From positions 73,160,001 to 73,224,000 of the forward strand of contig NC_086379.1 in NCBI RefSeq assembly GCF_036588685.1: a DNA stretch of 64,000 nt, read 5' to 3'. Source of the DNA: Mytilus trossulus (taxonomy: Eukaryota). Shown in pieces: positions 11,411-45,780 of the stretch. The notes beneath the pieces are model-generated. The model was not told the origin of the DNA and did not search any database. It worked only from the letters and a program-made list of their open reading frames with translations. The stretch's first letter is position 1, and every line of letters begins with the position of its first letter. Both the position numbers and the translations under genes were made by a program.

Positions 11411-11810
11411 TATATATATATAACTGCATTTAGGTTATGCTCATATGAAATTGTATCATGTTGCTTCGCATTTTGTCTTTGCAACCAGCGATATGGATAA
11501 GATTTTCCCTAGCATTGTTTTGTTTTGTAAGTTATCAAAGAATCTGACATGAAAAAACGTGTTTATTTTATGATTAAAATAACTACCAGAAAACATAATC
11601 AGGTAGGTAATAATGAATGACATGCTTAATGTCGGTTGTTGCTGTGTTATATATTTGTTTTTCAGTCATTTTTATATATACATAAATCAGGCCGTTAGTT
11701 TTCTCGTTTGAAAGGTAAATACATTTTGTATCATTTCGGTGCCGTTTTACAGCTGACTCGGCGGTTTGGAATTTGTGCATAGTTGATATATGTTCGGTGA
11801 CATATAGTTT

Positions 11811-14800
11811 TAAAAGTCTGTGTTATTTGGTCTCTTGTGAGGATTTGCCTCATTTTCAATCATGCCACATCTTCTTTGTTTTAATTGATTACAGTTACTG
11901 AGCAAATAAATTAAAATTAATTTGGTTTTCCATATGGTTAATAACTAAGATTAAATGGTAACTGTAGAAGCAAAATAACATTCCTGAACAAATCTGTTGA
12001 TAAGTATAAGGTATAAGAGGAGCAACTACTGTAAAGTTATAAAACATTACAAAATCTAATACAGTTTCAATTCAAAAAGACAGAAAATATTCAATTTAAA
12101 TAACAAATTAATGTTTAATAATGTTATTCATAATTCCTTTTTTTTGGTGCTCAATATGTATCAAAATTTCGTAAATAATTGATATTTGTCGATCAAAATA
12201 AAAAGATAAATTAGACGATATATCATAAAATCAAAACTATTAGTGAAAATACGGTTAATGTTCATTGATATGTTGCATAATTAATACATTCGATCAGTTA
12301 AAAGTTCAAGCTATTATAATATTTGTCAAATATTGTAAATTGAAATATTAATACCATCATGCAGTAAACAACAGAACTTAAATTACATTTATATTTACTA
12401 TTTAAATGGTTTCTGTCAGGCAGTCTTGTGTTTTGTTAATTATTTTGCTTTAAACCTGACTATTATCATACGTTACGATTTATATTATGGGGTTTGTTCA
12501 TATAAGGCTGAATAGTTCTTCTGACACCTGGCTTCATTTGATAACCGGTGATATTTGTCTCATTAATCATTACTTTTTATGAATAAATTATCCTGCAAAA
12601 AGTAAAATGATAAAGAGACCGAGCTCTGGGGAAATTCTAAACGGAAAGTCCCTTATCGTATTGCAAAATCAAAATCTCAAACACATCAAACGAATTGATA
12701 ACAGTTGTCATGGTCCTGACTTAGTATGGACATTTTCTGAACTAGGCTTGAATGAGCTTAACAAAAACCCAAACAAATAAAGTAACAGTTTGAGAAATGA
12801 TAAAAGCTCTTACGTTAAAAAAAACGAGAAACCATGTAAAGAACACAGAATAAAAGTAAGTTAGGAAAGTCAACAGTCCACAAAACACGTTATTAAAAAT
12901 ATTTTGAGACGGATTAAATTATAATCAAATTTTATATTTTGAACGCATCAAAAATACTTGTCACTTGTTTATGTGTTTAGTTTGAATGTTTAAAATAAAC
13001 AGCTAGTTTATAGAACACGGCAACATTAACTTTATTTCATTCCACAATGGAAGCTCTTACAAATTTGTTAGTATCCATCAAGAACTAAACGCACAATAGA
13101 AGGTGTTGCACTCAAATATCCATAAAAGAATTGCATAAAAAATAAACAATTGGTTACTTTAAAGATTCATATCAAATCCACCTTCTGCGCTTGAATCAAA
13201 ACAGAACAGGCAAAATTAAGTAAAAAAATATAAAACATGAACACTATAAATCCATTATGTTTTGCCAGATATAAAAGATGTATATAGTCGACATCGTAGA
13301 CGTGTACTTTTTGTACAACATGTGTTCCTATTATACTTTTATCAGTCTGCAGGCTAGAACAGTTGTCACGTAAATGTTTCTTTTTATAAACGGTTGTGAC
13401 AGTTCAATGGTTTCATTGTAAAACTTTTAGGGAAGTAACATTATTATTTAGATTTAAAGTAGCTTTACAGCAATTTGACAGCTTTTTCTCTGATATATCT
13501 GTTATTAATCAAATCAATAGGATCGCTTGGGAAAAACATAATGCAGATACAGTAGAGAGATAAGTGTTCACGATTGTGTTTTAGAGAAGGGTCGAAAGAT
13601 ACCAAAGAAAAAGTCAAAGTCGTAGATAAAAAATTAACTGACACCTCCATGGCTAAAAAAGAAAAAGACAGACCGACAAATAATAGTACACAAGACACAT
13701 AGAAAACTTAAGACTAAGTAACACAAACCCCATACAAAAACAAGAACTATTGAAGTCATTGATAAATGGGGGAAAGTTGAACCAGGGTTGTACATGAATA
13801 CTAGTATGAAAAAAAAGGTAGACAATAATTATCAAAGCGTACATACATACTTTTAAAATCAAGTTTAAAAATTACGATTTTTTTTTCTATTTTTTCCTTA
13901 AATGTGGACCTATTTCCTTTTCCCAGTTTTATAATTTCATTACTGTTTCAATTTTGATGCATTTGCAAATGATACTTCAATATAATACTTTTTTTAATTT
14001 TCATATCTAATTAGTCAGATATGAAAGTGTAATAAAAGTCGGCATTGTTGTACTGTTATATTAAATTTATATCCAAGTTATGATAAAACAAACTTACCTG
14101 TCAGCAGATACAGCAGTAAAAAGATTTTCCTCATTTTAAATCTTTATCTAAAGTCCAGAAAACGTTAATATTGAAACTCGCATAATGCTGCTCTCACTTC
14201 TTTATATATCACGTATGGTAAGTCATATGATATGAATATTTAAATTCATTTTCAATTAACTTTTTAAATGAATATTGAATTTTCAGGCGACCCAATAGCT
14301 CTCTTGTGCAATTGATAATTAAGCTATTTAATTATTGGAAAAAAATACAAACATATTTAACACATGTTGTTAATGTCAGTTACATTTGATTTTAATAACA
14401 ATTTTGAAATTAAAGAAACGATATTTAATCTTGAAGAATATTTTGTTGATAACTGGTAACAGAAGGATGAATTCTTCTGACGTTTCAGTCTCGTTGAAAT
14501 CTTGTAATTGAATTATTTTCAAAAAATGAATTTAATAAATCAAAAAATCAAACTTAACACTGTGAATGAATGTTTTAAAAGTGTATTTCTAAAAGTCTGT
14601 GTCATTTGGTCTCTTGTGAGGATTTGCCTCATTTTCAATCATGCCACATCTTCTTTGTTTTAATTGATTACAGTTACTGAGCAAATAATTTAAAATTAAT
14701 CTGGTTTTCCATATGGTTAATAAATAAGATATAATGGTAACTGTAGAAGCAAAATTACATTCCTGAACAAATCTGTTGATAAGTTGGAAAGGTATTAGAG

Positions 14801-17361
14801 GAGCAACTTCTGTAAAATTATAAAGCATTACAAAATCTAATGCAGTTTCAATTCAAAAAGACTGAAAATATTCAATTTAAATAACAAATTAATGTTTAAT
14901 AATGTTATTCATAATTCCTTTTTTTTGGTGCTCAATATGTATCAAAATTTCGTAAATAATTGATATTTGTCGATCAAAATAAAAAGATAAATTAGACGAT
15001 ATATCATAAAATCAAAACTATTAGTGAAAATACGGTTAATGTTCATTGATATGTTGCATAATTAATACATTCGATCAGTTAAAAGTTCAAGCTATTATAA
15101 TATTTGTCAAATATTGTAAACTAAAATATTGATACAATCATGCAGTCAACAACAGAACTTAAATTACATTTATATTTACTATTTAAATGGTTTCTGTCAA
15201 GCAGTCTTGTGTTTTGTTAATTATTTTGCTTTAAACCTGACTATTATCATACGTTACGATTTATATTATGGGGTTTGTTCATATAAGGCTGAATGGTTCT
15301 CTATGGCTTCATCTGATAACCGGTGATATTTGTCTCATTAATCATTTCTTTTTATGAATAAATTATCCTGCAAAAAGTAAAATGATAAAGAGACCGAGCC
15401 CTGGGGAAATTCTAAACGGAAAGTCCCTTATCGTATTGCAAAATCAAAATCTCACATCAAACGAATTGATTACAGCTGTCATGGTCCTGACTTAGTATGG
15501 ACATTTTCTGTGAACTATGCTTGAATGAGCTTAACAAAAACCCAAACAAATAAAGTAACAGTTTGAGAAATGATAAAAGCTCTTACGTTAAAAAAAAACG
15601 AGAAACCATGTAAAGAACACAGAATAAAAGTAAGTTAGGAAAATCAACAGTACACAAAACACGTAATTAAAAATATTTTGAGACGGATTAAATTATAATC
15701 AAAATTTACATTTTGAACGCATCAAAAATACTTGTCACTTTTTTATGTGTTTAGTTTGAATGTTTAAAATAAACAGCTAGTTTATAGAACACGGCAACAT
15801 TAACTTTATTTCATTCCACAATGGAAGCTCTTACTAATTTGTTAGTATCCATCGAGAACTAAACGCACGATAGAAGGTGTGGCACTCAAATATCCATAAA
15901 AGAATTGCATAAAAATAAACAATTGGTTACTTTAAAGAGTCATATCAAATCCACCTTCTGCGCTTGAATCAAAACAGAACAGGCAAAATTAAGTAAAGAA
16001 AATATAAAAACATGAAAACTATAAATCCATTATTTTTTGCCAGATATAAAAGATGTAAATAGTCAACATCGTAGACGTGTTCTTCTTGTACAATATGTGT
16101 TCCTATTATACTTTTATCAGTTGCAGGCTAGAACAGTTGTCACGTAAATGTCTCACTTTACAAACGGTTGTGACCGTTCAATGGTTTAATTGTAAAACTT
16201 TTAGGGAAGTATCATTTAGATTAAGATTTAAAGTAGCTTTACATCAATTTGACAGCTTTTTCTCTGATATATCTGTTATTAATCAAATCAATAGGATCGC
16301 TTGGGAAAAACATAATGCAGATACAGTAGAGAGATAAGTGTTCACGATTGTGTTTTAAAGAAGGGGAGTAAGATATCAAAGAAAAAGTCAAAGTCGTAGA
16401 TAAAAAATGAACTGACACCTCCATGGCTAAAAAAGATAAAGACAGACCGACACATAATAGTACACAAGACACAACATAGAAAACTTAAGACTAATTAACA
16501 CAAACCCCATACAAAAACTAGAACTATTGAAGTCATTGATAAATGGGGAAAAGTTGAACCAGGGTTGTACATGAATACTAGTATGAAAAAAAATGTAAGA
16601 AAATAATTATCAAAGAGTACATATATACTTTTAAAATCAAGTTTAAAAATTACGATTTTTTTTTCGATTTTTTCCTTAAATGTGGACCTATTTATAATTT
16701 CATTACTGTTTCAATTTTGATGCACTTGCAAATGATACTTCAATATAATACTTTTTTTAATTTTCATATCTAATTAGTCAGATATGAAAGTGTAATAAAA
16801 GTCGGCATTGTTGTACTGTTATATTAAATTTTATATCCAAGTTATGATAAAACAATCCTACCTGTCAGCAGATACAGCAGTAAAAAGATTTTCTTCATTT
16901 TAAATCTTTATCTTAAAGTCCAGAAAACGTTAATACTGAAACTCGCATATTGCTGCTCTCACTTTATATATCAAGTATGGTAAGTCATATGCTATGAATA
17001 TTTAAATTCATTTTCAATTAACTTTTTAAATGAATATTGAATTTTCAGGCGACCCAATAGCTCTCTTGTCCAAGTAATAATTCAGCTATTTAATTATTGG
17101 AAAAAAAATACAAACATATTTAGCACATGTTGTTAATGTCAGTTATATTTGATTTTAATATCAATTTTCGAAATTAAAGAAATGATATTTAATTTTGAAG
17201 AATATTTTGTTGATAACTGGTAACAGAAGGATGAATTCTTCTGACGTTTCAGTCTCGTTGAAATCTCGTCATTGAATTATTTCCAAAACATGTGATACAA
17301 CTGGAAAATATAAATGAATTTAATAAATCAAAATACCAAACTTAACACTGTGAATGAATGT
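11811..17361. repeat. Tandem segmental duplication, unit ~2.78 kb (11811-14573 and 14590-17361)
   Basis: The two copies are collinear throughout, with scattered substitutions and small indels; offset 2779 at the left end. Confidence 0.95.
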
Positions 17362-17824
17362 ATTAACAAAAAGTAGTTTTTAAGTAATAAATTTTTCAAA
17401 TTTTATCACCAATCAAGTCAGTTGTTTTGGCCACAATGTTGAGAAAATGAATGTGGGCTACAAGAAATGATTTATCCATAAAAATATTTATCCCATATTA
17501 CAACAAAATTACAAAATTGACAGCACGGTTAATTTGACACGAAGAAGCATTAAATTAATACCTACCTTCAGTTTTTTTTAGTTAAATTTATTCAGATTGA
17601 AAGTATGAAAAAAAAATATAATTGTGGAACTGTGATTTCTCTCACAATAATAGCACAAAAATTGGTAAAAATTGATGAAAAGGGGAAAAATCATCAAAAT
17701 GGTGTACACAACAATATGATTTTTTTCTACACCAATATTTTTTGCAGTCATATAAACCCAAAAATCCGGTAAGGAAAAACAAGCTTAATTTTAGAAATGT
17801 TTGGCTCTTTAGAGGTTTTCATCT
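17229..17824. mobile_element. Inverted copy of the 29292-29888 MITE
   Basis: ttcttctgacgtttcagtctcgttgaaatctcg, aaattgacagcacgg and agaggttttcatc are reverse complements of parts of the 29.3-29.9 kb element. Confidence 0.7.
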
Positions 17825-20800
17825 TTGAGTGTAATTGGGATAACAATCAAATGACACATAACACGAAAAGACACGTTAGAGGTCAGCATTTATATGTTGT
17901 ATTATAGTACATGTATGTAAAATTTTAAATTGCAAGAATGCACAATTTGCCATCAAACGAAATTCACTAACGGACAATAACACCATAATACAACCATAAT
18001 AATATTATTATCTTAGCTGTAGTTGGCAAAGAGTTAAACCTTTTCCTGAATTTTGGGTCCTCAATGGTCTTCAAGTTCGTTCTTTATTTGGCCTTTTAAA
18101 TTATTTAAATTGAAGCATTCATAATGAGTGTGTTGTGAACGGAAAAGGCATATGGCGTTTCTATGACGAGTACATTACATTATATTATATTAGGCAACCA
18201 AAGCTATCTAATTGTTTTAACTCGTTGAAACAACTGCAAAAATGTTCACTGAAGAAAGCGAAATTACGATCAGTACATGAAACACCTTAAACAACAGAAC
18301 AAAATAAGGTGTAACTGGAAGTAAGACTTGTGTATATTTTTAGCATTCGACATCTTTGCGAGTATACATTCTGCTTTCCATACCTAGTTTTACAATTAAA
18401 AGCATAAAACCGAAATATTTCAAGGTAGCAATCAAATATCTTCTCGTATATAGACAAATAGCAGATTTGCCACAAAGAAAGAACTGAAAAAGGCTTAAAG
18501 TTTGTTCAGAATTTACAGATTTTTTTTCTTTTGTCTTCATTTAAATATTGCTCATTGAATTGATATTAGTTTTTAATAAATACAAACCTCACGCAAATAT
18601 ATTCTTAGTTTTTAGTATACGACGTTGATAGTTTGATTTTCACTATTCAAAGTTTAAATATTATGTTTTGTATATTCGGCTTTCGTTAATTATTGGTCCT
18701 CAATTTATGCATTTATTTGGGAAGCCATGTTTTATTCGGATTTTATTTTGTACAAATCTATTTTTGTCTTTTAACTTTTTATTAAACGATTTTGGATATT
18801 TTTCTCGTAAATGCAAAATGAAATAGAATATCAAAGTAGCCATTTTTATCACTTATGTCTTGTTTGGTTCGTTTTTTAATGAGTGTATGTCTCGTGAAAG
18901 TTTACCCTAATTTCATATCAGAATCATACGCTTACAATGATACTACACTTAAAAGTTGCACTTTGTAAAAACAAATGTTTCTCAAAACACGCCACTTTTA
19001 GGGAGATCTTGAATATTCATAGAAAATTAATTTTGTTTGGCTCCCAGTTATTCTCTCTATGTTCCATCTCACAGAGACATAACTTGGGAACGTTACCAGT
19101 AAATAAACATGTGCATATTGTTAACATTGAAATCTGTGAAACCTTTCATTCGAGGTATGATTTATTTTAGTAACTTAGTGTCCTACCTTTAACATTGCGC
19201 CCTCCTCGTCCTCCCATTCCATATCCCATACAGCCTGCTCCTCCGCCCATACCCATGACAATTAGTGTTAGTTTAAACTTTACGAAGTATGAACTTTCAA
19301 ATCTAGGATAAGATGTTTTTCAAAACTTCATAGTAAAAGAGTTACAATTTTAGCCGTAAAAGGAGTTCCTATTTGAAATTGCATTGCATTGTCAATATTT
19401 ACAGAAATGCAACCTATAGTACAATAACCCTTAAACACATACATACATTTGTACATAAGAAATATATATGTTTATGATTTGTTATTAAACGAATCTCAGT
19501 ATCAATCAGAATTAGTCACACTCATTGAACACTCACTGAACTTCACACATTCGATAGCCTTTATACCTAATTATGCATCTTATTTGAAATAAAGGTTTAT
19601 CTAAAACAATTTTGAATTGAGAATTAAATATTAATTGCGCACCTTTTGACCTACAGTTAATATCTCGATTTTTAATGGGAACTATATAACAATCAGATCT
19701 ACTTTTGTCAATATGCACATATCGGAAATATTTTTTTCTTGTCACAAATATATTAATTTTTAAAAATGATTGGTTTTCATTCAAAACACAATTGTTAAAA
19801 TAGATACAAAGCAAAATACTGAATAGACCATAAAAACGAAAAGCTCGTTAATTGGTTTTAAAAAGTACCGTTCACACGAGCAGTATTTCCAAGGTATGAT
19901 ATATAATTAGACATGAAACCTAGATACATTAATTGTGCATATCAGATTTCGGATCCATCTAGCATGTTGTTCTTTTATGTTTTTATATTTCAATGAAATG
20001 TATGTTTAAACAGTTTAGGCTGCATGATCCTAATTTTTAGTCACATTTACCACATATGTCAATTTGAGTTGATCACCTGCGGTGTCTATATAACGATACA
20101 ATAAACCACTGTAATGCATGTGGAAGATTTAGCTAGTTATACAAGTAGATTAAACACACGATTTTATTCTGAAAATACCAGTACTAAGTCAGGTAAATGA
20201 CAATACTTTCCTTCTGTTCCGTTGGTCGATAAAGAATAATGTTTTTTATGTCAATTGTTATGGATTTCCCCTTTTTGAATTTACTTTGTAATACGCTAAT
20301 CCTTTTGTATTTTGTCCAATTTTATCTGAAGTGATACATTTAGAAGCTTTATATCTGGGGTTTATCCACAAACTAATATCTTTGATTTACTTCCGTCAGT
20401 TTTATATCAGTAGTGTATATCGTTTTGTAGTATTGCAGTGTATGTAGTAGGAAACGTGGAAATCGGTTGATAAATGAATATATCAATATAATAATTAAAG
20501 TAACTTGAGGTGTTGCTAATAAAACATCCCTCAATAAATATATCCAAGTATTTTGTGATTTGAAAAAGGAGGAGGAGAAGAGTTATACATAAGACCAATA
20601 GTATGTTGATATAGGATCAAATCCGTTTAATGATATAATAAAATAAAATCATTAGTTGTAGAAACGAATGAAGTGATAAAAGTTTGTTGTATTTAGTAAA
20701 TCCTTATTATTTAACTTCCAGTTCCAATTTTGACGAATCATTTTGGTGTTTGCTATATATTATTATAATTTTAATTTTCGGTTGATAAAAAGTCTGTTGA

Positions 20801-21298
20801 AATTATAACTTTATAAATTTTTCTGATAGCCTACAACCATAATCAGTTTCTTTTTACTTATGATTGATGTGTTAAAAAAAGAGGGACGAAGATACCAGAG
20901 GGACAGTTAAACTCATAAATTGAAAATATGTCTGGTGATGAGAGGACACCTGCCTTATCAGTCGACACCGTGTCCATAGTGACGTCTGTTTCGAACCTTT
21001 CTTTACTGGGCAACGTCCGAGCAAGTTTCCTGTTTGATGTTTGTAAATTCATGCAATTAAAGTTTTGCTACTGGGCGGATGATGTCCTCGGAAACAAATT
21101 GTCCACCAGCAGAGACATCGACCCAGTGGTTATAAAAAGGGACGAAAGATACCAGGGGGACAGTCAAACTCATAAATCGAAAATATGTCTGGTGATGAGG
21201 TGACACCTGCAATATCAGACGACACCGTGTCCTAGTGACGTCTGTTTCGGACCTGTTTATACTGGGCGACGTCCGAGCCAGTTTCCTGTTTAATCTCA

Positions 21299-21545
21299 TA
21301 GTTATCAAAGGTACCACAGGATTATAACTAAGTACTTCAGACGCACGTTTTTTCTACATAAAAATCATCAGTGACACTCATATCAAAAGTTGTATAAAAC
21401 TAAACAAGTACAAAGTTTAAAAGCATTGAGGATCTAAATTTCAAAAAGTTGTTCTAGATACGGCTATGGTAATCTATGGGACACATTTTGATATGCATGT
21501 CATTACCGGAGTGTTGACTACTAGGCTGGTTCAGGGACGAACTTA
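21299..21545 (-). mobile_element. Decayed retrozyme fragments
   Basis: Reverse complement of the hammerhead end (tagttatcaaaggtacc...cagacgcacg...catcagtgac) plus a deleted internal piece. Confidence 0.7.
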
Positions 21546-22999: not shown

Positions 23000-23170
23000 G
23001 TAGTTACCAAGATAAAAACTTAATAGACCAGACGCACGTTACGTCTACATAAGACTGATCATTGACGCTCAGATGAAAATAGTTATGAAGCCAAACAAAT
23101 ACAAGGTTAAAGAGCTTTGAGGACCCAAAATTTCCAAACAAATGGGGAAAATATGGCTATGGTAATCTTT
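23000..23170 (-). mobile_element. Decayed retrozyme 3' fragment
   Basis: ccagacgcacgttacgtctacataagactgatcattgacgctca is the reverse complement of a mutated hammerhead. Confidence 0.7.
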
Positions 23171-26369: not shown

Positions 26370-26488
26370 AAAGGGAAAAGTTAACATATTAAAAGCACTT
26401 TTTCGTAATTTTAGCCCTATAAAACTGCAAACAAGGAAAAAGTTAACATATTAAAAGCACTTTTTCGTAATTTTAGCTCTATAAAACT
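26370..26488. repeat. Two-copy 62-bp tandem repeat
   Basis: aaagttaacatattaaaagcactttttcgtaattttagc.ctataaaact occurs twice. Confidence 0.9.
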
Positions 26489-26596
26489 TATATTCATATT
26501 GTATTTGTGCTTAAAAACAAACGAGCCGAATGGACTGGCGTACTAAATTATAATCCTGGTACCTTTGATAACTATTTACACCACTGGGTCGATGCC

Positions 26597-26643
26597 ACTG
26601 CTGGTGGACGTTTCGTCCTCGAGGGTATCACCAGCCCAGTAGT
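26597..26643 (-). ncRNA. Non-canonical hammerhead-like motif on the opposite strand of the retrozyme
   Basis: Minus strand reads actactggg-CTGGTGA-taccctcgaggac-GAAA-cGTC-caccagcagt. Core order and stem I pairing (ctgg/ccag) are right, but the core has A6->G and stem II is imperfect. Confidence 0.45.
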
Positions 26644-26852
26644 CAACACTTCGGTGTTGACATGAATATCAATAATGTGGTCATTTTAATAAATTTCCTG
26701 TTAAAAAACTTTTTAATTTTTCGAAAAACTAAGGATTTTCTTATTCCAGGCATAGATTACCTTAGCCGTATTTAACACAACTTTTTGGAATTTTGGATCA
26801 TTAATGCTCTTCAACTGTGTACTTGTTTGGCTTCATAACGATTTTGATATGA

Positions 26853-26896
26853 GCGTCACTGATGAGTCTTATGTAGACGAAACGCGCGTCTGGCGT
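26853..26896 (+). ncRNA. Type I minimal hammerhead ribozyme, predicted cleavage after C26890
   Basis: Stem I GCGTCA/TGGCGT; core CTGATGA (26859-65); stem II GTCT-tatgt-AGAC; GAAA (26879-82); palindromic stem III ACGCGCGT; GTC cleavage triplet. Confidence 0.9.
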
Positions 26897-27954
26897 ACTA
26901 AATTATAATCCTGGTACCTTTGATAACTAATTAGACAGCTTTGTGGAGATGTTCACCTAGAAATAAAAGACAACTGAAAATCACGTTATCAGTTTCGAGT
27001 TGAAATAGATAGTGTCATGCAAAAAAGATATACCATATCTAGAAATATAAAAGAGTCAACACAGTCGCTACCTTTATAGGTCATGTGAATTCGAACTGAA
27101 CATTATATCGAAGATACACTGTCGATTGAAACACCGTTCTTAGCAGCATTGTGCGACAAAAAATTCAGTCTTAGAATGTAGGATCAACTTAACCTTCTTA
27201 GTGTTTAAATCATGCGTATAATTTGTGTTTTCGTATGACTGTTAAGTGCATATGTAACAGCACGTTAGGTAGCCAGTCCATAGTGTCTCTTAAGGCAAAG
27301 TTTACTTCATGATGTTTGTATTTTCGTTATATTTTTTACTGGGAGGTAAGTTTTTCTCTGTGTGCTCAATGTTTGCAAATACATTTAAATCCGTAAAGTT
27401 TATTTTATGTTACGTTAGACTTTGTGTTTTTATAACAGTTGGTAATGCTAATTGTATGATGTGTATGTACTCTTTGTGTGCAGTAAATGACACGGTTCAA
27501 ATTTGTGAATTTTGAAATTGAAGCTGCTTTGTTCTGTCATAAAAAGTATCAACGTTTATCGAAATTGAAATTGATTTAAATGTCATATATTTTAATGGAA
27601 TCCCGTTAATTTTCTTGACGAGGCTAATTTGATCAATGAACAACAAGTAAGAGCATTATTTTTTCTGTTTTGAAACATAACACGATTATCAACGCTTTTG
27701 AATAATTATATTGTTTCGATGGACGTTTTGGAAACTGAGACCAAAATCATTTTTAGATAATTAAAATATTTAAGAAAAGGCAGTCAGTTCATGATGCGAG
27801 TCATTAGCTGTTGAGTACACGTACATGTATACGTCCAATATTTTCTGAGGTGTCTTGATATCTTGAAATTTGTATCACGTAAATTATCAACCATATTTAT
27901 ATTGCGTCTATTAGCCTTATAAATGGATGTGAATCACTCTTTTAAATGTCTAAT

Positions 27955-28145
27955 TGTTTATCAAGAGTACAAGGATTGTAATTTAATACGCCTGTCGCGA
28001 GTTTCGTCTACATAACACCCATTAGTGTCGCTTGTTCAAAACATTTAAAAAGCAAAACAAGTACAAAGTTGAAGAGCATTGAGGACCAAAAAATCCAAAA
28101 AGATGTGCCAAATACAGCTAAGGTAATATATGCATGGGATAACAA
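27955..28145 (-). mobile_element. Decayed retrozyme 3' fragment
   Basis: Reverse-complement match to about 26740-26925 (gtttcgtctacataa, acaagtacaaagttgaagagcattgagga). Confidence 0.7.
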
Positions 28146-29291
28146 ATGGTTTTAAGTTTTCAATTATTTCTTAAACTTTTTGTTCACACCTTTTTGAAGA
28201 AACTCATTATTTATCATGCACAGCGTGACAAATATGACCACACTGATCCAAAGAAAAAATATCATTGGTGTTTATACCACATATACTTTTTATATCAGTA
28301 TTCCAATTGTTAGTAATTGTGTACAGGTAATGTCCGACTGAACTTTGTACTCTTTTAAAGCAATTCATACAAAACTTTCAGTATTTTTACCTAATTCTTT
28401 AATTTCTCATAATATTAAGTTAATTATATCATGTCACTCAAAAATCATAATTTTAGTGCGTGCTTGCATATGATATATCAAACTCATCTTTAAATTAAGG
28501 ATGCTAGTGAAACTATGTCTACATTGTATCTAGATTTTTTTCTTGCTGCTGACTCATATGACAAACGTTGGGCAGTTATAGCTTTTCCATGCCCTACAAA
28601 TTGTATTGTCACTACCAAGAGTTGGTTTACAGATACTCTCTGTCTGTCTCTAAGCGACAATTTTAAATTTGTCTGAAATGCAATTGCAAAAAATCTAAAA
28701 ATAGCCTGCCCACAGACTACAGAATAAACAACATTAAAAATAAACGAGAAAGCAGCACGTACCATACAAAAACAAAAAACAAACGGGGTGATCTGGGATG
28801 CTCTATAAGGATAACAAATATATTGTGTGAGTATATGATCTTTCAATTGAGAAAAAGGAATAATAGATGTTATGCAAAGTGCGACAAAATTTCAAACACT
28901 TAAGTGCTAGTCTTTGTAAGAAGCAGGCAATTTAGGAAAAAATAAAAACATGATCAGAAAAAACCCACTGAGCTTATCATGCTATTTAATACTAACCATC
29001 ATCCTGAGTTACAAATTATTAGTCTTTCGTTTGTGTGTGTCTGGTAATATCAAATAACTCGGTTAGAAAAGTGGTTAAAATGATAGCAAATTACAGAGTT
29101 ATCTCCCCTTATTCGATAATTTCTAGTGCATTTCAACCAAATTGTATCTTCTATTACCAGAACAGAAAACGAAAATGAATGTTATTTTTGTGCATAACTA
29201 CATATTATGAACTGAAATCAATGTCAAATTGGGTGGGGTTTTTTGGTCATGTTTTCACCACTGCCTGATTCTTAGGCAGACTGGCACTTAA

Positions 29292-29888: not shown

Positions 29889-31495
29889 TTAAAGTAAACT
29901 TTAAGCATTTTCTCGAAAATATATTCGAATGCCCTTAATGATCGATTACATTTTGTTCAAAATTTTGAAGGTCATCTTAATCGTTAACAAAATGGTAGTA
30001 AGGATTTTAGAAATTTAACATATTTTATTGTTGAAAAGAACAAATGGTGTAATTACATTTTTGCCCCATTCATAAACGTTAACTTTGTTAAGTAAAGTGT
30101 GTAATATGTCTTTCGTTGTAAGTATCTTTGTGAATCTAATTGAAGAATAGAATTGAGGACAAATAAAATCTTTGTTTTCATAATATTAATACCAAAAGGA
30201 AAGACGGGTTTGTGATTTTCTAAAATCTACTCTTCGTGAAAAAAACGTAGTTGGAGTGGGATTCACCAAATTGTAGTGAACTCTTTTGTAGGGCACTTCA
30301 AAGAATAATGTTGAGTGGGGCGCCCATATTCGCCGGGAACACAATTCGCCGTTTTATGATTTTGAGGTGTAAAAACTTCAAAGGATGGTTGAAATGGAAG
30401 ACATATACCGGTAAATAGTATTATATAACAAATATGATTATTTTTTTTTAAACTGAGACAAAATTGCGGCACCTACTGAAAAGGACCGAAAAACGGACAA
30501 CGATTTTCGGCCAATTTCCAGAAGAAAAAACACGAATTCAGAGAAATATTTCTAAGTAATTCTTTGACTGAATGCCCTAAATGTCAGTTCTAAATACCTT
30601 TGAAATGTCTGCTATTCATCTATAATGATATTGATTAATGTTGTTAAAAGCTGCGGTTATTTGGTTTTAAATAGATGTGTAAAAACGGCGAATAAGTGTC
30701 CCCCATTGACAACAAAATCGGGAAATTTCAAAAACCCTTTAATCTAATTTTTCAGATGATTATATTCAAACAAACACGTTTTCAAGCTTAAGAATATTTT
30801 GCATTTGAAGTTATCTTCATATAGAAATATCAGTATACTTCAAAAACATTTAGACCTGAACAGAAACTGTAGAAAACTTGAAAAGATGTGGCGAAATGAG
30901 CACCCCACTCTATATAACATAAAACACTGTTTTTTACTTTGGTAAATGGGAAACGAACAAAAACAGATGATGAGAAACCTATGTGCTCATTGTAGACAAA
31001 AAAACTTTGGATGTCCTTCTGATTGTGCACAACAATGAGCTGCAATTGTTATCGAATTGCACTTTATAACTAGTATCCACGGGTTTGAAGAGCATGTAGT
31101 AAGTAATATCCATAGTATTGAAACCAGTGAGTACTTTGAAGCATATGTATCAATAAAACGATTCTGTTGGACTCTTGAAACAGTTAATTTTTCTGTGTTA
31201 TCAAGTATTGGTTATTACAATAAACAGATTATTGTAGTAGAATTAATTGTTTCAACTTTTAAAACTGATTAAAAAACGATTTTGTTCTATCACCGTGCAT
31301 TATTGGAATCCACTAAGTTTTATGTTTAGTGTGTTATAGAACTAAAACACATTTTGCATAATGGATGTTAATTGTTGGAAATCTATATCGGTTTGATAAA
31401 AACATTTTTGAACATTTCCTACAAGAATAGTTAATTTTCCAACAAGTATGATAATTTATCATCCCATTTTAAACTCGATTACGATATACATAATA

Positions 31496-33928
31496 ACTAG
31501 TATCTCAATTGTTTGTAAAACAATTGAAAGGTTTTTCCTGTAAAAGTGATGTTTTCGTAATGTACTTTGTACGACCATTCGTTTGATATACGACAAGCAT
31601 ACCTTCTGAAACTCTTCGCTTTTTACACTTAATAATCTCATCCGCCTACATTTTTGTGATCGGAATTATGTAAATGTAACCTAGAGGAGATGAGCTTTCA
31701 TTTGATATGCAACAACGCCATGTTCTAGAAAGTTTGATTTTTGCACTTAATAACACTATCCAACTAATTTTTGGAGGTCGGGAATTTGATATTTCATATG
31801 TACACATCATGACCTTTCATTTGATATATAACAACCCTATCTTAAAAGAAAATTTATTTTTTGCACTCAAAAACCCCATCCAACCCATTTTTGGGAGACG
31901 TCAATTTGAAATTTGAAATGTACGCTTTATGTTCTTTCATTTGATATGCGACAACCTAACCATCTGATAAATTTGAATGTTTGCACTAAATGACCCCACC
32001 CGTCCCCCTGTGATGAAAAGGGGGTTTAAAATTTTTATTTTTAAGTAGAGTTTATTAAGACCTTCAATTTGATATATCAGATGACCCCATTTGACAAAGT
32101 GCCAAAAATGATGCAATATCAACTATATAAATAGAAGTTATGAAACTTACAAAGTCAATGCAAAACATGAAAATTTCAAATTGATATTTTGGTGTTTTTT
32201 TTCAATGGAAAGTTTTTGGTATTTAGTCAAACATATAACTATGTTAACTTCTTCAATTTCTTAAACATTCTAAGTGGTAAGCTGTTGTTGATTCAGAAAT
32301 ACATGACACCGCTCGCAAAACTTCAAACTGCATTATCTCTAAAACGACAATAGATATCTCAAATCTGTTAAATGATCTACAGTTGAAAGAGAACATTATG
32401 AAAAGAGAATTGGGACAATTTCAAAGTTCACCAAGGTCACAATTAATCATCAATTATATGATGCAATACCAAACTTTAGAACCGGAGGTCGTAGAGACAT
32501 GGGACTATCACCATTCAACTCAGGAACATTTGACCTTTCAAATATCACAAGGTCAAGGTCATAGTATACTTTGAAGGTCAAGGTGAAATTTCATCATGAC
32601 CTGATATTGACCTCAAAATGAAGGTTTTGGATTGCTGATCATCTTTGCAGTTTATAGTAGGTTGATATCTGTTACCTTTAAAAAGATATACACAAAATCC
32701 TATACTTTTAGAATCATCTCGTTACTTTTGAACAGACAGTCGGACATTTTGGACTTATTATATAAAATGTAAAGCTCGTCGAGTGGAACATTTTATACGC
32801 TGTATGTATGCAGCAAAGTCTTATCGTTTTCCTAATATGTAAGCTAGAAATTGCAGCGTTATTTTATTTTGCACTCTCTGACCTTTGACCTTAGGTGCAT
32901 ATTAAAGTTCACACGAATTAAAGACTATTGTTGAAGGTTCCAAGTCTCTACGACTTCCAGTTCTGGAAATACAACTTTTCTAAAATTGTACACAATTTTT
33001 CAAGGGGAATAACTCCTTATAAGGGTTGATAACAAAATGATTGTATATGTTCATTAACATTACCATCTGTGTTCCTGTACATGTTGCCGTTTTCAAATCG
33101 ATTCTATCTCTAATACTTTTTGAGAAAAATGTAAGGAAAAAATTGCTTCAAGGTGAAATAACTCTCATAGGGAATGATGAAATCCTTAGCAGCCTCATAT
33201 GGTAATACATCATGATGATATCTAACTATTGTTCAAATAAGGTCATGATATCTTTAAAAACAACAAGGGGGGCCATGTCGAAAATTATCGATAAAAGAGA
33301 GATAAGTTCTAAAGGGGATGATGAAATCCTACACAGCCTCATCGGGTTATACCTCATGATGAGGTCTATCGATGGTCAATATTTGGTCTTGATGACATTA
33401 ATATAAACGGAGGAAGGGCATTTAGAAAAAATGTTGGAAAAAAAATATTAGAAAAACAGTAAGGTCTTTCCCCACGTAGGGGAAAGACCTTAACTATTAT
33501 CATAGATATTTGACTAAGACCTTTGAGTTTACATCGTTTAAATCGTAGGAATAGTGTTTATATTGTATAAAAAATGGATTGGATGGGGTTATTGAGTGCA
33601 AAAAATAAATATTCTTTTAAGATAGGGTTGTTGCATATCAAATGAAAGGTCATGATGTTTACATTTGAAATATCAAATTCCCAACCTCCAAAAATTAGTT
33701 GGATAGGGTTATTAAGTGCAAAAATCAAACTTTCTAGAACATGGTGTTGTCGCATATCAAATGAAAGCTCATATACTCTATGCTACATATATCATACTTC
33801 CGATCACAAGAGAAGGTATGCTTATCGTATATCAAACGAAAGGTCGTACAAAGTACATAAATATTACGAAAACATCACTTTTACAGGAAAGACCTTTCAA
33901 TTGTTTCACAAACAATTGAGATACTAGT
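31496..33928. repeat. Inverted repeat pair of about 360-400 bp (31496-31890 and 33572-33928) with internal ctttcatttgatat sub-repeats
   Basis: actagtatctcaattgtttg... versus ...caaacaattgagatactagt; ORFs 31707..31916(+) and 33558..33755(-) translate almost identically. Confidence 0.85.
32290..33493 (+). mobile_element. Helentron/HINE-type non-autonomous element
   Basis: tgacctttgacct/aggtcaaggtca and aaggggaataactc motifs; ~145-bp internal repeats; terminal palindrome taaggtctttcccc-acgta-ggggaaagacctta (33460-33492). Left boundary uncertain. Confidence 0.6.
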
Positions 33929-34769
33929 TGATATTTGTTTTATTCAATAGATATAGTGGTATGGATGTTAATAAGACAACTCTACATCCAAGTCACAATA
34001 TATAAAAGTAAACCAGTATAGGTCAAGATACGGTCTTCAACACGAAACCTTGCCTCACACAAAACAGCAAGCTACGAATGACCACCCCCAATTCCCCCCC
34101 CCCCCAAAGAAAAAAAGAAAAAAAAGTGTTAAACCACTCAAACCAACGGTCTTATCTATATAAAAAAAAACGAAAAACGAGAAACACTTATGAGCCTCAT
34201 CAACAAACGACAACTACTGAATATCAAATACACAGAGCGCACCTATTTAATGAAATATTAAAACAGATATGTATTTCGGATCATACATATTTTAATAGTA
34301 TGATTAATGTGTAGAAAATAAAATGTCTCTTTGACACATTCTCCATTTCTATTTTCAATTTTAACTGTACAAAACACTCAAAGAAAATACACAATGACTT
34401 AAGGTTCCGGCTGATCATTCTTGATTCAACTGAAACTTACGAAATCGTTAACTTCAACATCTAAACTAAACAAAATTTCTAGGACAGACCTACAAAAGTT
34501 CAATGCCTCATATCAGACTTTCAAATGGTATAAAACCTGCATACCTAAACTCGTTAAATTACTATAGTTACACTTTAGATGAACTAATCTGTGAATGTTT
34601 GCTAAATTTTCAGAGGCAAATATATATGTATTTAAGATGTGTATACATTAACAAAGTATATCGGGATCAAAGACAGGCATGTCGACTACCGAAAAAGAGG
34701 GTAAGTTGAACATTTGTTTTAAGAAAATGTGCATTAAAACTTGCTCGAATGATTGGTTGGACTGTGCAA

Positions 34770-35010
34770 AAAGTAAAAGATAAAATCACAAAAATACTGA
34801 ACTCCGAGAAAAATTCCATCGGAAAGTCCCTAACCACATGTCAAAATCAAACGACAAAACACATCAAAAACGAAGTGACAACTACTGACATATTTCTGAC
34901 TGGGTACAGCAAATGTAGAAAAGGATGGATTGAACCGCTTTTATAGCGCTTAACCTCTCACTTGTACAAAGTACAGTCTCATCAAATTCCGTTATATTTA
35001 CAACGATGCG
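34770..35010 (-). mobile_element. Penelope-like subfamily A terminal fragment (further copies near 12598-12740, 15370-15510, 38450-38600, 46075-46330)
   Basis: Motif aaaatcacaaaaatactgaactccgag...ggaaagtccc. Confidence 0.7.
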
Positions 35011-38000
35011 TAAATTTTGTTTTGTTTTCTGCAATGCAAATAATTTATTCAATTTGGTATAATGAAAACTTAAAACAAGAAAGATTTAAGGTGGTTCATG
35101 TGTCCATAATGTTCTATAGTATCATGAATAAAAATTTAGTTAATTTCAGATCAATTTCTCAAAATTTGTATCAGGCATTTCACATTTAAATATGTTTTTT
35201 AATTTATTATTTTGATGCCTCGCTTAATCATTAATTCCTGTCTCTTGTTTTTGCTCTGTTTTAATAAATAACTAGTTAGCTTTTTATTGAATTATATTTT
35301 GTAAAAATACTAACATTTTTGATTTAACCAAAGTTAAGTACTTAATATTCATTTTGATTAATTCAAATAAAACAAAACACTCATGACATGTATTGTATTA
35401 GTGAAAAAAACAATTATAAAGCAAGATCTAAATCAATGTATTGACATATTTATGATGTAAATGTTAAAAAGAATAGAGATCTGATTGTTATATTAAAATG
35501 ATATAACAATTGAGTTTACGGCTGCAGTAAAACATGTACGCAGTAACTATTCAATTCGTGTTTGTATTCAATCTAAGGTACTTTTAGAAAAACATTTGTA
35601 TCGGAATATAAACAAAAATGTTAACAGTGTATTCAATAAAAAGAATCAGCGAACTACTGGTTAACTTATTTATTAGTATGTAACAGATTAGTAATCAATT
35701 TCTAGAATAAAATACCCCTCCAAACTTGCCAATTATTTCTAATTGACTATCAAAGCGAATTCTCTTATGTTGTGTACTCCTAAAATTTTCCGCAAAGCAG
35801 CTTCGGAAATCTATTGCCTGACACCGATGCCGATAATTAGCATTTCGTGTACTTTTTTATCAAAAAACTGTATCTATCTATATGTATGTTTTTTTATAAA
35901 CCGAATGTATAATTTACTTGCTAAAGTTATTATTTTAACCTTAATAGCTTTCTCACATGTCATATGTCCTGTAAAACTTAAGTGAGGAAGAAGTCAAAGT
36001 TTTTATGAATAAATGACACACTTATTTTTTTACATTTCAATAACGGCGAAAAAACACTGGCATTAGAAACAACTTATAAATATTTATAAATACCCATTTG
36101 CTTGTAATGTTTTGTTTTACAATGTTTCATTAGTGTTACATGTTTTCTGCTCATATTCTTATAACGATATATGGGAAAATGTGGTATTAATGCCAAATAG
36201 ACAAATCTCCATCCAAGTCACACATTGTTCAAGTAAATCATTATAAGTCAAAATACGGTCTCCAGCATGGAACCTTGATTCACACTGAACAGCAATTTAT
36301 AAAGAGCCACCAAAAGGAACATTGTAAAAACATTTAAACGGGAATACCAAGGGTATTTGAATCTATATATAAAAAAACCAGAAACAATTATGAACCACAT
36401 CATCAACGACAACTACTCAACATCAGGTACTAACCTCCACTTTTATCTGAAACAATAGTGTAACATCACAGCAAGGACAGACACACTATAAGATATCAAT
36501 TGAAATGGCTTTACTCAATCAAAAGACATATAAACACAAGTAAACAAACGAATAAATTTTATCTATGACACAATGTGAATACACAATCTAGAAAATAAGG
36601 GTTTAGATGTTAAGCAATTTCAGAAAAACATCCAAACCTTGAAGAAAAAGTCGCCAATTGAATTCTGTACACCATGTACACAGGTTAATGAAAACATTTT
36701 GTTGTAAAGCATACAGTATAAATGGAGAATGGAATAATTTTTTACAAAATTATTTTGTTTTTTATAGTACGAGAAAAAAAAGAAAATATTCCTAGTATCA
36801 AACACTTACTATCGTTGGTATATATTTAAATAGAGTCAAGATGTATCACCAAAAAATTAAACAATGATAAGAAACACATAACAATTTGTACCAACAGATA
36901 AGGTTAACAAAGAAGTACGATTTGAGAGTACTTGCAGTTACTAAAAGCTAGTTCAGAACCAAAACAAATAACAATAAAAATTCACGCAACAGGGAATAAA
37001 ATGAACTAAAACGCACCCCAGGTACTTAATATTTTAACGTCATGGACAGTTAAAGGAGACGCGACTTGTGCAATGCCAAACTTAAAAGAATCGACAGGCT
37101 ATTTCGGACTTAAAACTTATTTAGAACAATGAACGTGGGTGTGTAGTTATACATCCCGCTTGAAAGAATCCAATTTAAGTTATGTTTGAATTTGCGGATG
37201 ACAAACATCGATATATGTGTTTGTCTGAATTCATCTTTTGTCGTTTGACTTCTCGGTGTGATCACAATTGCTACATCCTTTCGTTGTAGCAGCGGTGATC
37301 TGAGCCAGATCAGCCATATCAGATCCTCCTAGCTTGGGTTTCTTTGTTTTGCATGCTTACTTTAGTTTTGTAACATTTGACCGGAAGGCCTAATCCACAA
37401 TAAATCTTTGAATTATTTATACGGAGAAGACTAGCTATCAAAATGTAGAAATAATCCAGTGTCTATGCTGGAACTCGAACTCAAGACCTTAATCATAACG
37501 ATCCACAAATCAAACTTCTACACCAGGACAACTTGATACACAATGATTGTTAATCTAACATATTTAAACATTGTTTCCTGGGTTCATAAAGGGTATATAC
37601 TATACAATGATATATAAAATGTATTATAAGAACAGCTTGGCGTTCTCAACTACATTTTAATGGTCAACATCTAATATAGAGCATCTTAGATGAAGAACAG
37701 TTATCCCATTAAAGTTAGTGTCAGAGTAAGATCACCGTCTGGCTTACGATCATCTGGACAATCTTATACTGAAAAACGGCGTCCTCATTGGATAACTATA
37801 ACTGGTTAGTATGGTGATAATTGTAAACAAAAAAAAAGATGTATTGTTTTCGTACGTCTGAAGCGCATGTTAGAGATTGAAGCACATTTATTGGTAACAT
37901 GTTTAAATTCTTCGTCTTTGGCATCCACATATACTGATACGAACAACCTAATCTTTTCCTGTATTGAAATCCTCTTAAAAAGGTATATTGCTGTTATACG

Positions 38001-40688
38001 TTTTCATTAAATCAAAACACCTCTTTGTTATTTTTCTGCAAGGATGCAAGGAAGTGAACTAGAATTAACACTTTTGAAAGGCTATAACAAAGCCATTGTT
38101 TTGTAAATATCTAGATTTTAACTGGATTAAGGGTCCCCTGAATATAAGTAGATTAGTTATATTAAACCTGTTTTGGATCCAGTTTGACGTAATTTCTTAT
38201 AACTGCCCAGATTATTAGAAAGATATAAATATGAATTGAGAGGTAGCTCGTGTAGTCTCAGATGTCACTAACCTCACACGGAAAGGAGTAAAAAACCAAG
38301 TGGGCTGTTGCATACATATATAATTATTTTGATGAATAGCAATTCTATTATCATAATGAAACCAACTCTATCTTTTCTTTATATTAAAATTTTATTCATA
38401 GATTACCATTAAACAGCACGATCCTGACATTGGAAATATGTATACAGAAGTAAAAAGTAAAATCACAAACATGCTGATCTTAGTGGAAAATCAATTCGGC
38501 AAGTCCATAATCACATGACAAAATCAAATTACAAAACACGTCAAAAAGGAATGGACAAAAACTGTCATATTCCTGACTTGGTACATGCATTTTCAATAGA
38601 AGAAAAAAGAGAGGTTTTAGTTTTTTTAGCTCTTAATGTTTCCATAGTGGTGTTATGTAACATAATATGAATATGCTGTAATAACATGTTCCTTGTTGCT
38701 TGCATGTTGATAGGACCACATAGATTGAACTCGGTTTGGTTTTTATCTCTAATACCTATATAGTTAAGACAATAACCCCTAAAAGCAATATTCCCAACCT
38801 TCCTTGTGTAGTATGAAACTTGGTAGTATAATTCCATGGAGATTCATTTACTTATGCTCCGGTTCTTTTCTGTAAACATAATTTCTTGACGACGGCGACG
38901 ACGCTGAAAACGCCATAACACAAAAATGAACGCAAAAGTTTAGTTGTCGTATAAAAAGTAAGTTGTAAATGGTTTAAAAAACGTCTAAACCAAAAACCAT
39001 TTATGCAACCATAAAAACAACAAAAATCAAAAAAGTACAGCTCTAAGAGTATTTGCAGAAACTGACTATTTCCAAGTGTGGAATGCAGTGGATGAAAACA
39101 ATTTGAGGTTACCATACGACCTTTCAACAATATAGTCCGCTATAAAAGGTCCATACATGAAAAATCTATTTTTGATGAAACTGAGCATTTCAATTTAAAG
39201 CAATCTGCTTTGCAGTAGTATATTTTATTTTGACAATAAAAAAAAGTGACGAAAATGGGTTCCCCTCAACAAATCAAAAACACTGAGGCATTTTCTAACG
39301 TCTGCATATATTTTACTACTCAATATATAGAATTGAGAATGGAAACGGGGAATGTGTCAAAGAGACAACAAACCGGCAAAATATGTCCTCTATGCTGCGA
39401 AAAATTCCGCACCTGGAAGCGTCCTTCAGCTGGCCACTAAATAAATAAATATACTAGTTCAGTGGTAATGAACGCCATATTTGACTCCAAATTATACACA
39501 AGAAACTAAAATTAAAAATAACACAAGACTATCAAAGGCCAGAGGATCCTGACTTGTGTTCTATTAATAATTTAAAACAGGGTTAATTTTCTAAAATGGT
39601 TAGTTTTATTTAACCAACAAAACATATTAATATCAAGCAGCAGCATACGTTGTGCATACAAAAAGGCTGTTTGTGGTTGCGAATATGGACGCCCAACTCT
39701 ACATTTACGCAAATGTCTTTTTTATATGGTCATATTTATAAAATAACTGTTTACAAGATTGAATTTTTCGAAATACAATGAATTTTTATTAGAACGTCAC
39801 TTATGAGACTTTGGTAGATAAAAACCGCGTATGGTAAACACATTTTAAAAACTGGTATCAATTATTATTTTTTTACAAAAGTTTAAAACAAAACTTTTAA
39901 TCTTGACAGAATCCAACTTTTTATATCATGTCAAGGGTTTCTTTTAACACGGTTTTGTTTTATTACGCATATAGTAGATAATGAAAAAGTGACTTGTTTT
40001 ATGTTTGGAACAGATAATTGGTTTTCCTAACGAATCATATAATATTGACAATATAATGTGTGTAACCAAGGTATATTAAGTTTCCATCATTTAGATTCGT
40101 TGAATACTTCCTAATTGATATTTAAGTCTGCCAAAGTATGTAGTTAATGAAATTGATGTAATTTGTGTTAAACTAGCTTTCAGTATATACTATAAGTTGG
40201 ACTCATTGTATCGTCTGTCTTTTGTCCTTTAAGTCCTTTTGTGTTGGTTCTTAGTGCTGATATTTTACAGTAACCACCTTTGTTTGCTTTCAAAATATTT
40301 TTGGCAGCGAACTGGATCTAAGTCAATAGTGATTGAAGATAATGTTATTATGTCATGATTGCATGTTTGCCTTTCAATAACATGTACTATATATTGAAAA
40401 TATGGTTAATCAGAGAGCCAGCCCTTACTACAACTTCCACTTAGTGACGTCAAAGCATACAATAACTTACAATTTACGGATTTTATAATCTAGAAAGTTA
40501 TTATTGCCCGATCAAAAATAAATCCTTTGAAAACACTCAAAAAATATATATTTCATATGAACAAATTCTTTAACAACTTTTGTCCAACTCCATTCCACAA
40601 TTAGAATTTATGTGGTAAAAGACATTGAACAAAATCTAACTACTACATCAAACATCCAATTTACCTACATAAAACACCAACGTATTAA

Positions 40689-43275: not shown

Positions 43276-45780
43276 TTATCGACAATATGTTTTATGTTAT
43301 CATAGCGTAACTGATGAGCCTATATTAGACAATAGACAATACTTTATTAATAAACCTCAGACACATAGGTGAACAAGTGGACAAATCAGCGCGTCTGGTG
43401 TACAAAAGTTTAATACTGCTATCTATAATGAGAGCATTTACAGAAGTTTAAAACAAAGATGTCAATGAATCAGGAAAGAGGTTTCTTTTACACGGTTTTG
43501 TTTTAATACACATATTGTAAATAATGAAAAGATGACTTGTGTTATGTATTGAAAATATGACAATTGCCTTACGATTAATATTCAAGTACATACAATATAA
43601 ATTGTGTTACACACTCATGATTATGTTCTAATATATAGATCCAATGAATATGCTTCATTTTTTACTATACGTGTATTATATTGTCATTTTGACGTCATTA
43701 AACTGAAGTTGAAGTACAGGCTGACTTCTCTGCTTAACAATCTTTACGATATATAGTACAGGTTTTGTCAAAAGGCAAACATGAAAATATGACATAATAA
43801 CATTTTACTACATCATTATTGACTCAGACCCCGTTTATTTCTATTAATATTTTGAAGGCAAACATAAAAGTAAACTGTAAAAAGATCAGCACTAATAAAC
43901 TAATACAAAAGGACTAAAAGGACAAAAGACAAACAATACAATAAGTCTCTAGGAGTACCCACTTAAAGCTATAAATGCAAGTTTTAAGCTATTTATAATC
44001 ATTTACTATTACTTTTCACAGACTCAAATATCAATTAAAACATATTCATGAGTTATAAACACAATTGAGTTTGTATGTTCTTGAAATTGAATCGTTAGGA
44101 AAACGTATGATCTGTTCAAAACATGATTTTGAGCAAATATATCAAATAAGAACCTCATTTTACTCAAAAAGTAGCATATGAAGGTACATTTTTTATTACA
44201 TATTTGATTTCATCAGGGGCGAAACAGCCTATATAAAAATTGTCAGGAAATTTCAATAAGGGATCAAAACTGTATCGTTTGCCCTAAATGTATAAGAAAC
44301 AGTGATAAAATTCATTCCACCTGAAACATTCGACTCCATGCCAATTAACAAAGTCAGACAACATCTACAAATTCTTGATATTGAAATTTTGAAAATCAAT
44401 GAATTGATAAACAATATAAAAATAAAAATTGAGTAGACCTTCACCTTATACCTAATATAAATTATCTGCTTTAAGACAAAATATTTTTTATAAAAAGTCT
44501 TATTACGTACCTTTTATGTGTCACAACAACATATGTTTAACACAAAAGGGGAAATACTCTTGTAACATCTAACGAAGACATTTAATAGAGAGAAGTGATT
44601 AAAAAATACAGTATACAGAAATATGACTCCGATGTGCAAAGGTGTTTGGCGAGTTTCAGAACCATGTCGAGGAGGCATAGAAAATAGAAGCGGGTTGTCT
44701 CATTGCGTTATACCATTGTCTACGCGTTGTGTCAATATGAGCATATGTATCATATGGAAATTAATAAGCTATATTCATTGAGTCGATGATAAAACATGTT
44801 GTTGGTAAATCACTGTACAGTAGAGATATTTAATTTCATTTTTTTATTTATTTCTTGGCGATAGTGTGCACAGTTGTGGATGCGAAACGCAGACCAATAC
44901 TCTGCTCAAGTAAAATTTATCTGTCCAAAGTCTTTACAGCCTAGTGTATTCTATTTATGTATTGATTACAACGTTTGCTTAAAATTCTAATCGTTGCAGA
45001 TAAATGTGTTTACAAATTATTTTGACCATCTGTCATATGTAACTGACGGTTTTCAAACAACCAAAATTGTTTGACTATTATTCATAATGTTATTCAAGTG
45101 TTTTGTTGCAGTACTCATCATACCATTATTCTTTTATTTATGTAGAATAATTCCCTTTTTACAGTCTGAAAATTGATGAAAAGAAGAATTTGTTTTTATC
45201 TAATCTCTAAATCGTTTAATATTTTTCAAACTTGTCCTGTTTCCCGCTTTCGCGAAGAAATCTGTTTATTTCTTCTGATCTTGTTTGTCAAGAGACTTTG
45301 TGTCAAGTAAAAGAAGGGGCATCATTCTGTTTGTTTGTCGATAACGGGGAAAAAAGACCGATAAACAATCAAAATAAATTCCTTATATTTTCAAATGATT
45401 CTGGAGCTAACCCATTATACGAATGTATCGCAAACAAAATGTATTCTCCTGGGAAACGTGCCTGATCAATCGTCTTCAGATTTCTGTATCTAATAATACG
45501 ACTTTTTATCTGAATCCTTAACTGATATTCATGTCAACACAGAAGTGCTGACGACTGGGTTAGACAAGTTCCAAATATATCATGCAAACATTATTTATTG
45601 TCGATTAAAACAATTGTATCTTAAAAATTATTTGATATAAAAGAAAAACATCACCAGAATGTTACTACCATTTCTTTGTTTACATTGAAAAATCACGTTA
45701 CAACTGAAGTTCCTTACAACAGAACCAACAACGAAAATAGTTATTTTTCTTTTCTTTTATGCAGATTCGAAAATAAAATG

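Follow-up and report, generated by a model that had tools for sequence, protein, structure and literature searches.

The window, i.e. the whole 64-kb stretch of DNA that was analysed, has a GC content of 31%. A Mytilus-like host is indicated by the polycystin ORF, for which Mytilus proteins form the top four of 19 matches at 82-85% identity, and mollusc metagenomes are among the sequencing runs that contain the stretch. This ORF belongs to a polycystin-2-like channel gene on the minus strand (48752-50140 and 50563-50907, with an open stretch of 463 codons), the best matches of which are from Mytilus. A stop-to-stop ORF of 299 codons on the same strand (54730-55626) has no Pfam match. Moreover, the window harbours a 2.8-kb tandem duplication (11805-14578 and 14584-17366, 94% identical) and nested palindromes and inverted repeats of a foldback-like type (61340-62334 and 31495-33929). 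Besides the retrozyme discussed below, a second dispersed repeat of about 340 bp is present at 1724-2062, 6345-6640, 12597-12738, 15372-15509, 34770-35014, 38451-38606, 46070-46356, 46604-46890 and 62785-63125, and one of its copies begins 9 nt past the 3' end of the retrozyme copy at 46 kb.

The focal element consists of one full retrozyme unit of 355 nt, running from cut site to cut site (26536-26890, plus strand, GC 38%), and a 39-nt extension beyond the second cut (26891-26929). According to contig loose ends and BLAST, position 26929 is the commonest 3' end listed for the family. The extension is part of an exact direct repeat of 40 nt (26535-26574 equals 26890-26929; spacing 355), the upstream member of which comprises the post-cut sequence (+1 to +39) preceded by one C equal to C17, with no hammerhead upstream of it; the match ends there on the upstream side. 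The preliminary description had stated that the post-cut sequence recurs exactly at the 5' end of the element and that homology stops at the cleavage position. The first statement is borne out, over 39 nt after the cut or 40 nt with the preceding C. The second is accurate to within 1 nt: the C corresponding to C17, immediately before the cut, also belongs to the match. A chance match of this single C has P 0.16, and further upstream the hammerhead is matched at 2 of 12 bases (null mean 2.6), so that the focal homology ends within 1 nt of the cut.

No target-site duplication of more than 3 nt was found near the focal junctions, and no ORF of at least 110 aa lies over the focal unit. The 3' flank (26930-26947, plus strand) resembles the unit's own continuation (+40 to +57) at 11 of 18 bases (P 0.001, uncorrected and post hoc), a likeness that may be accidental, or may mean that the element prefers such targets or landed in an older copy. 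A 62-nt tandem duplication (26371-26488) lies 47 nt upstream of the element. A Pol III-driven, tRNA-derived SINE was considered and rejected: the window contains no tRNA genes and the sense strand has seven runs of at least four T.

The unit ends in a type I hammerhead with an intact core (26853-26896, plus strand), whose predicted cut falls at 26890/26891. A search with the Rfam model Hammerhead_1 (RF00163), the check proposed in the preliminary description, gave a full-length match (model positions 1-45 of 45) with a score of 33.0 bits and an E-value of 2.6e-6. The gathering score of the model is 34, i.e. 1 bit higher, and a whole-window Rfam scan at that score returned no hammerheads. The 355-nt unit and its terminal ribozyme are thereby as first described. 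As read from the sequence, helix I has 6 bp including two G-U pairs, helix II has 4 bp and a 5-nt loop, helix III has 2 bp and a tetraloop, and the GTC triplet occupies 26888-26890. The conserved core, three helices, open helix I and NUH triplet expected of type I are thus all there, and the helix sizes are canonical by the description in PMC4209133, unlike those of the minimal Penelope hammerhead. Helix III and its loop are self-complementary (26882-26889, plus strand; self-duplex of -13.3 kcal/mol), which would allow a dimeric hammerhead.

In ViennaRNA predictions the hammerhead fold is disfavoured, with a probability of 2e-4 for the motif alone and a helix I near 0 in context, and folding of just the hammerhead yields alternative structures. 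Self-cleavage at C26890 is plausible; a related genomic clone of M. galloprovincialis was reported to cleave at about 0.1 per min (PMC7229834). The focal locus does not have the two tandem hammerheads of an active locus, as is evident from the 2 of 12 matching bases upstream. Having one hammerhead only, it cannot free a 355-nt monomer with ligatable ends, or a circle. A read-through transcript of the locus may be cut once by its own hammerhead, and without an upstream hammerhead the locus would be unable to give rise to circles.

A BLAST comparison within the window identified 10 hammerhead-bearing loci including the focal copy, as well as two fragments without a hammerhead. Of these 10, the focal copy alone retains a fully intact hammerhead, although the copy at 46 kb comes close. 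On the plus strand we found a decayed over-unit copy (8955-9361), which by BLAST and flank comparison begins some 18 nt before the cut; a 5'-truncated copy from +115, with a nearly intact hammerhead and a 3' end as in the focal copy (45781-46061); two heavily decayed copies (18007-18158 and 39724-39857); and a short decayed 3' piece (43377-43429). On the minus strand lie an inverted, decayed and 5'-truncated copy 1 kb downstream of the focal one (27947-28214), a 5'-truncated copy with an internal deletion and again the focal 3' end (21299-21530), a decayed 5'-truncated copy (23002-23168) and a heavily decayed 3' piece (8151-8217).

Six of the 10 window copies have their 3' end between unit positions 389 and 394, and four decayed copies between 361 and 384. 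The BLAST query itself stopped at unit position 394, and the 3' flanks of the copies were therefore examined separately; none of the four other window copies tested continued into the unit beyond the 3' end. The 5' ends are scattered over 0/+1, -18, +115, +133, +140, +216, +219, +221, +307 and +338, where +216 becomes +95 when the internal deletion of that copy is allowed for. One of the 10, the focal copy, begins at the cut; with uniform ends, the probability that a start among 10 copies falls this close (within 1 nt) is 0.07. In the copy at 9 kb, the sole other over-unit copy in the window, 14 of the 18 bases that precede the cut agree with the hammerhead.

Two local arrangements deserve mention. 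The inverted copy at 28 kb shares 8-9 nt of 3' flank with the focal copy (27947-27954); a common origin of the two flanks is unsupported past the first 8 nt (P 0.14-0.69). On the minus strand at 20871-21530, a retrozyme copy extends to +39 and is followed by a foreign piece of 168 nt, by the unit again from about +40 to about +137, and by the foreign piece again (88% alike).

Contigs from 4 of 24 sequencing runs (three DNA, one RNA) were placed on the window at 85% likeness, with all contigs used. The three DNA runs contributed 101,185, 54,346 and 86,779 placed contigs and the RNA run 753, nearly all of them on the element, and contig depth climbs and drops in the bins that contain its two ends. 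In every run the largest row of loose ends listed lies behind 26929 (856, 492 and 646 contigs in the DNA runs, 20 in the RNA run), and a further row lies behind 26933 (401, 247 and 328; 12 in the RNA run). The flanks beyond these ends are unrelated to each other and AT-rich (agreement of about 0.4). The three DNA runs agree on a 3' end of the retrozyme family at a constant distance of 39-43 nt downstream of the cut. This signal, which the preliminary description had missed, is better supported and more useful than the 5' coincidence of the focal copy.

Loose ends behind 26897 (540, 335 and 385 contigs in the DNA runs, 19 in the RNA run) have a common consensus, and the contigs concerned, which carry the hammerhead but a different post-cut sequence, likely represent a second retrozyme subfamily. 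The rows listed for loose ends on the other side (before 26711 and 26841-26851) look like diverged copies that continue. Among the 24 of 2244 loose-end rows listed, none lies before 26535/26536 or 26890/26891, as a pile-up of 5' ends at the cut would. Contigs that start at the cut are split between two places, the loose-end counts are incomplete, and the contig placement tabulated no places where many molecules begin. The rows speak against a dominant class of copies starting at the cut and leave room for a minor one.

Head-to-tail joints occur in the DNA contigs and go back 342-354 nt (15 of 1123 joint rows listed). With 10 copies in the window and these joints, the family has the multi-copy, head-to-tail organisation of animal non-LTR retrozymes. 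The 753 contigs of the RNA run cover the element and none of its flanks; they are silent on circularity, strand and source locus, and DNA may be present in the library. No contig spans the focal locus, and the low cover left of the element in run X2 is uninformative. Metagenome, prokaryote-genome and viral contigs were searched for exact patterns, and none of the three sets contained a match.

The preliminary description also called the focal copy recent. It is indeed young beside its neighbours in the window, which are 13-35% diverged, but it carries near-private changes at a level of at least 2%. More specifically, at least 16 differences lie inside the element; 15 of the 16 listed correspond to the majority letter in run X1, and at 8 of the 16 at least 85% of the X1 depth shows another letter. 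All 16 lie within 26619-26840 and none in the repeats or the hammerhead (P 0.005-0.06, depending on the sites counted), and 8 changes placed at random could have left the two terminal repeats identical (P 0.17). In addition, the junction between the element and its right flank is crossed by contigs of X2 (organism B), which reach 22 nt into the element, and by contigs of X6 (organism C), which reach 19 nt into it. Overlaps of this length fall short of the 31-letter rule of the contig placement and give a hint that other organisms share the focal insertion.

Since the 3' cut site was copied intact, the template must have been either a circle or an RNA exceeding one unit in length. To that extent the earlier proposal of a copy derived from self-cleaved or circular RNA holds. 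Its other half, a 5' end made by the ribozyme, rests on one of 10 window copies, with the 9-kb copy running about 18 nt past the cut and no pile-up among the rows listed. We favour, with a probability of roughly 0.5, the reading that the element is a dispersed one-hammerhead copy, for which a Penelope-type reverse transcriptase started 39-43 nt past the cut and ran off the 5' end of a self-cleaved RNA. The enzyme would start inside the RNA at an AC-rich site just upstream of a folded domain, and would run off at a 5' end created by upstream self-cleavage. The simplest template would be a multimer cut at the upstream hammerhead while the next one was still uncut; a jump between cleaved monomers would serve as well. 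Between its 5' end and the priming site a cleaved monomer provides no more than 39 nt of template; longer copies thus require a circular template, a multimer left uncut or a jump between templates. For the focal 5' end taken by itself, run-off at a cleaved upstream hammerhead is somewhat favoured, the balance going mostly to chance truncation on a circle; the coincidence is a single case, suggestive and unproven.

The predicted structure of the RNA is consistent with such a start. A stable stem-loop is predicted just 3' of the family's fixed end (26583-26661, plus strand; z -3.64, reached in 0 of 200 shuffles). In five decayed sequences 89% of the cells of this stem-loop are paired (7 of 500 shuffles), a weak indication; the structure used was that of the focal copy. 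The fixed end falls within AC-rich sequence for which no pairing is predicted and which directly precedes the stem-loop, a candidate protein-binding site; by analogy with the Penelope-like elements (PLEs) discussed below, priming would occur at +39/+43. The fold of the circular monomer is no better than that of shuffled sequences (z -0.97, 18 of 100), and no fold was found for 26700-26845 (z 1.01). Dependence on a Penelope-type enzyme implies a fixed 3' end inside the RNA and downstream of the hammerhead, combined with 5' truncation, and this is what the family displays. None of the 8 ORFs scanned (11 are listed in the window) has an RT or GIY-YIG domain, and no autonomous partner came to light.

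A 5' end at the cut could also result from ordinary truncation, in which the reverse transcriptase goes once round a circular RNA, displaces the cDNA that it has just made over some tens of bases and by chance stops at the cut. This has a real, though lesser, claim: 9 of the 10 window copies begin elsewhere, the 9-kb copy halts 18 nt further on, the loose-end rows listed contain no 5' pile-up, and circles dominate the RNA in mussel tissues (PMC7229834). On the other hand, it has to accept a match within 1 nt at the 0.07 given above for uniform ends, or at about 3/60 if stops occur within 60 nt past the full circle. We consider it improbable that the 1.1-mer was made at the DNA level, by collapse of a tandem array or by gene conversion in which a young copy overwrote an old one, or was inserted in a decayed copy, in which case its ends would be uninformative on the template. 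The 11 of 18 flank bases that match the unit's continuation, the 8-9 nt of 3' flank in common with the inverted 28-kb copy and the confinement of the 16 listed differences to 26619-26840 (P 0.005-0.06) could be read in this way. However, the focal 3' end equals the family-wide end, the likeness of the flanks is gone beyond 30 nt and was tested post hoc, and the clustered differences also agree with an origin from a diverged source copy that was under selection. Least credible of all is that the copies represent pseudo-LTRs, the 5'-truncated termini of some long autonomous Penelope-like element, and not an independent small element. Penelope elements likewise have a fixed 3' end, 5' truncation, no target-site duplication and a hammerhead close to the 3' end (PMC8557442, PMC11167929), and the retrozymes of Xenopus resemble pLTRs (bioRxiv 10.64898/2026.07.22.740005), but the unit closes on itself at 355 nt without an ORF, head-to-tail joints are present in DNA, and the hammerhead has canonical helix sizes and not the minimal Penelope form.

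Run-off at a self-cleaved 5' end, preferred for the focal copy, may be extended to the family, with both ends set by the mechanism, i.e. the 3' end by a priming site 39-43 nt past the cut and the 5' end by a full-length class starting exactly at the cut. This extension is doubtful. If true, the genome would record retrotransposition of a self-cleaved linear RNA and not of the circle alone, and the RNA element recognised by a Penelope-type protein would be defined. The fixed 3' end would be a direct footprint of the priming site. Which element mobilises animal retrozymes, and which RNA form is used, becomes a question that can be tested by counting ends in mussel assemblies.

The closest known system is the non-LTR retrozyme of M. 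galloprovincialis described by Cervera and de la Pena in 2020 (PMC7229834). That genome was reported to contain about 5000 type I hammerheads in repeats of 350-390 bp, with two ribozyme families; the retrozyme construct was 353 nt, circles were abundant and the dominant RNA form in mussel tissues, and PLEs were named as the likely mobiliser. The focal element agrees with it in a Mytilus-like host, a unit of 350-390 bp, a GC content below 50%, a type I hammerhead, the lack of LTR, PBS and PPT, and a high copy number. It also has the characteristics of animal non-LTR retrozymes in general, being non-coding, within 150-450 bp, below 50% GC and provided with one type I hammerhead per unit. It is likely a member of the published family, as judged from host, size, GC content and ribozyme only. 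The post-cut variant at 26897 fits the two ribozyme families, and the hiding of the hammerhead in predicted folds, seen here with ViennaRNA, was also remarked upon for the mussel circles. In contrast to the published retrozyme, the focal locus has one hammerhead and no self-excision. The text of PMC7229834 consulted here does not deal with fixed 3' ends or 5' end positions, and its figures S4, S5 and S9 may bear on the ends. We found no published analysis of retrozyme ends, in the texts of bioRxiv 721605 and PMC10294476 among others, although supplements, subscription papers or Repbase may contain one. The focal element most likely belongs to a family that is already in print, as is the link to PLEs, and the analysis of the ends adds a modest new angle.

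That animal retrozymes are non-autonomous PLEs has been proposed with phylogenetic support (bioRxiv 10.64898/2026.07.22.740005), whereas a 2020 review noted no motif in their repeats that points to a partner (PMC7761336). The retrozymes of the former study are dispersed solo monomers, as here; its available text includes neither mussels nor an analysis of ends. By its two-hammerhead criterion the focal copy is not active, and cleavage was observed in only 1 of 9 dimers tested.

The proposed start is best compared with the PLE of anole, Poseidon PAc (Frangieh 2024, PMC11167929; Craig 2021, PMC8557442). Its protein nicks AT-rich DNA and initiates synthesis within its own RNA, at AC-rich sites located past the hammerhead; RNA beyond the start on the 3' side is required, and the genomic ends fall on these starts. 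Cleavage by the hammerhead was dispensable for insertion of the anole element, and no reads began at the cut (PMC11167929). Unlike PLEs, the focal element is devoid of an RT/GIY-YIG ORF and has a canonical and not a minimal hammerhead. The two retrozyme ends listed are 4 nt apart, whereas the Penelope tail of 30-40 bp lies between starts 30-40 nt apart (PMC8557442), so that to name the 39 nt of the retrozyme a tail is to use an analogy. Nevertheless, the 3' ends of both Poseidon PAc and the retrozyme family are fixed beyond the hammerhead and coincide with an AC-rich stretch, and AT-rich flanks, 5' truncation and the lack of a clear target-site duplication are further features in common with PLEs.
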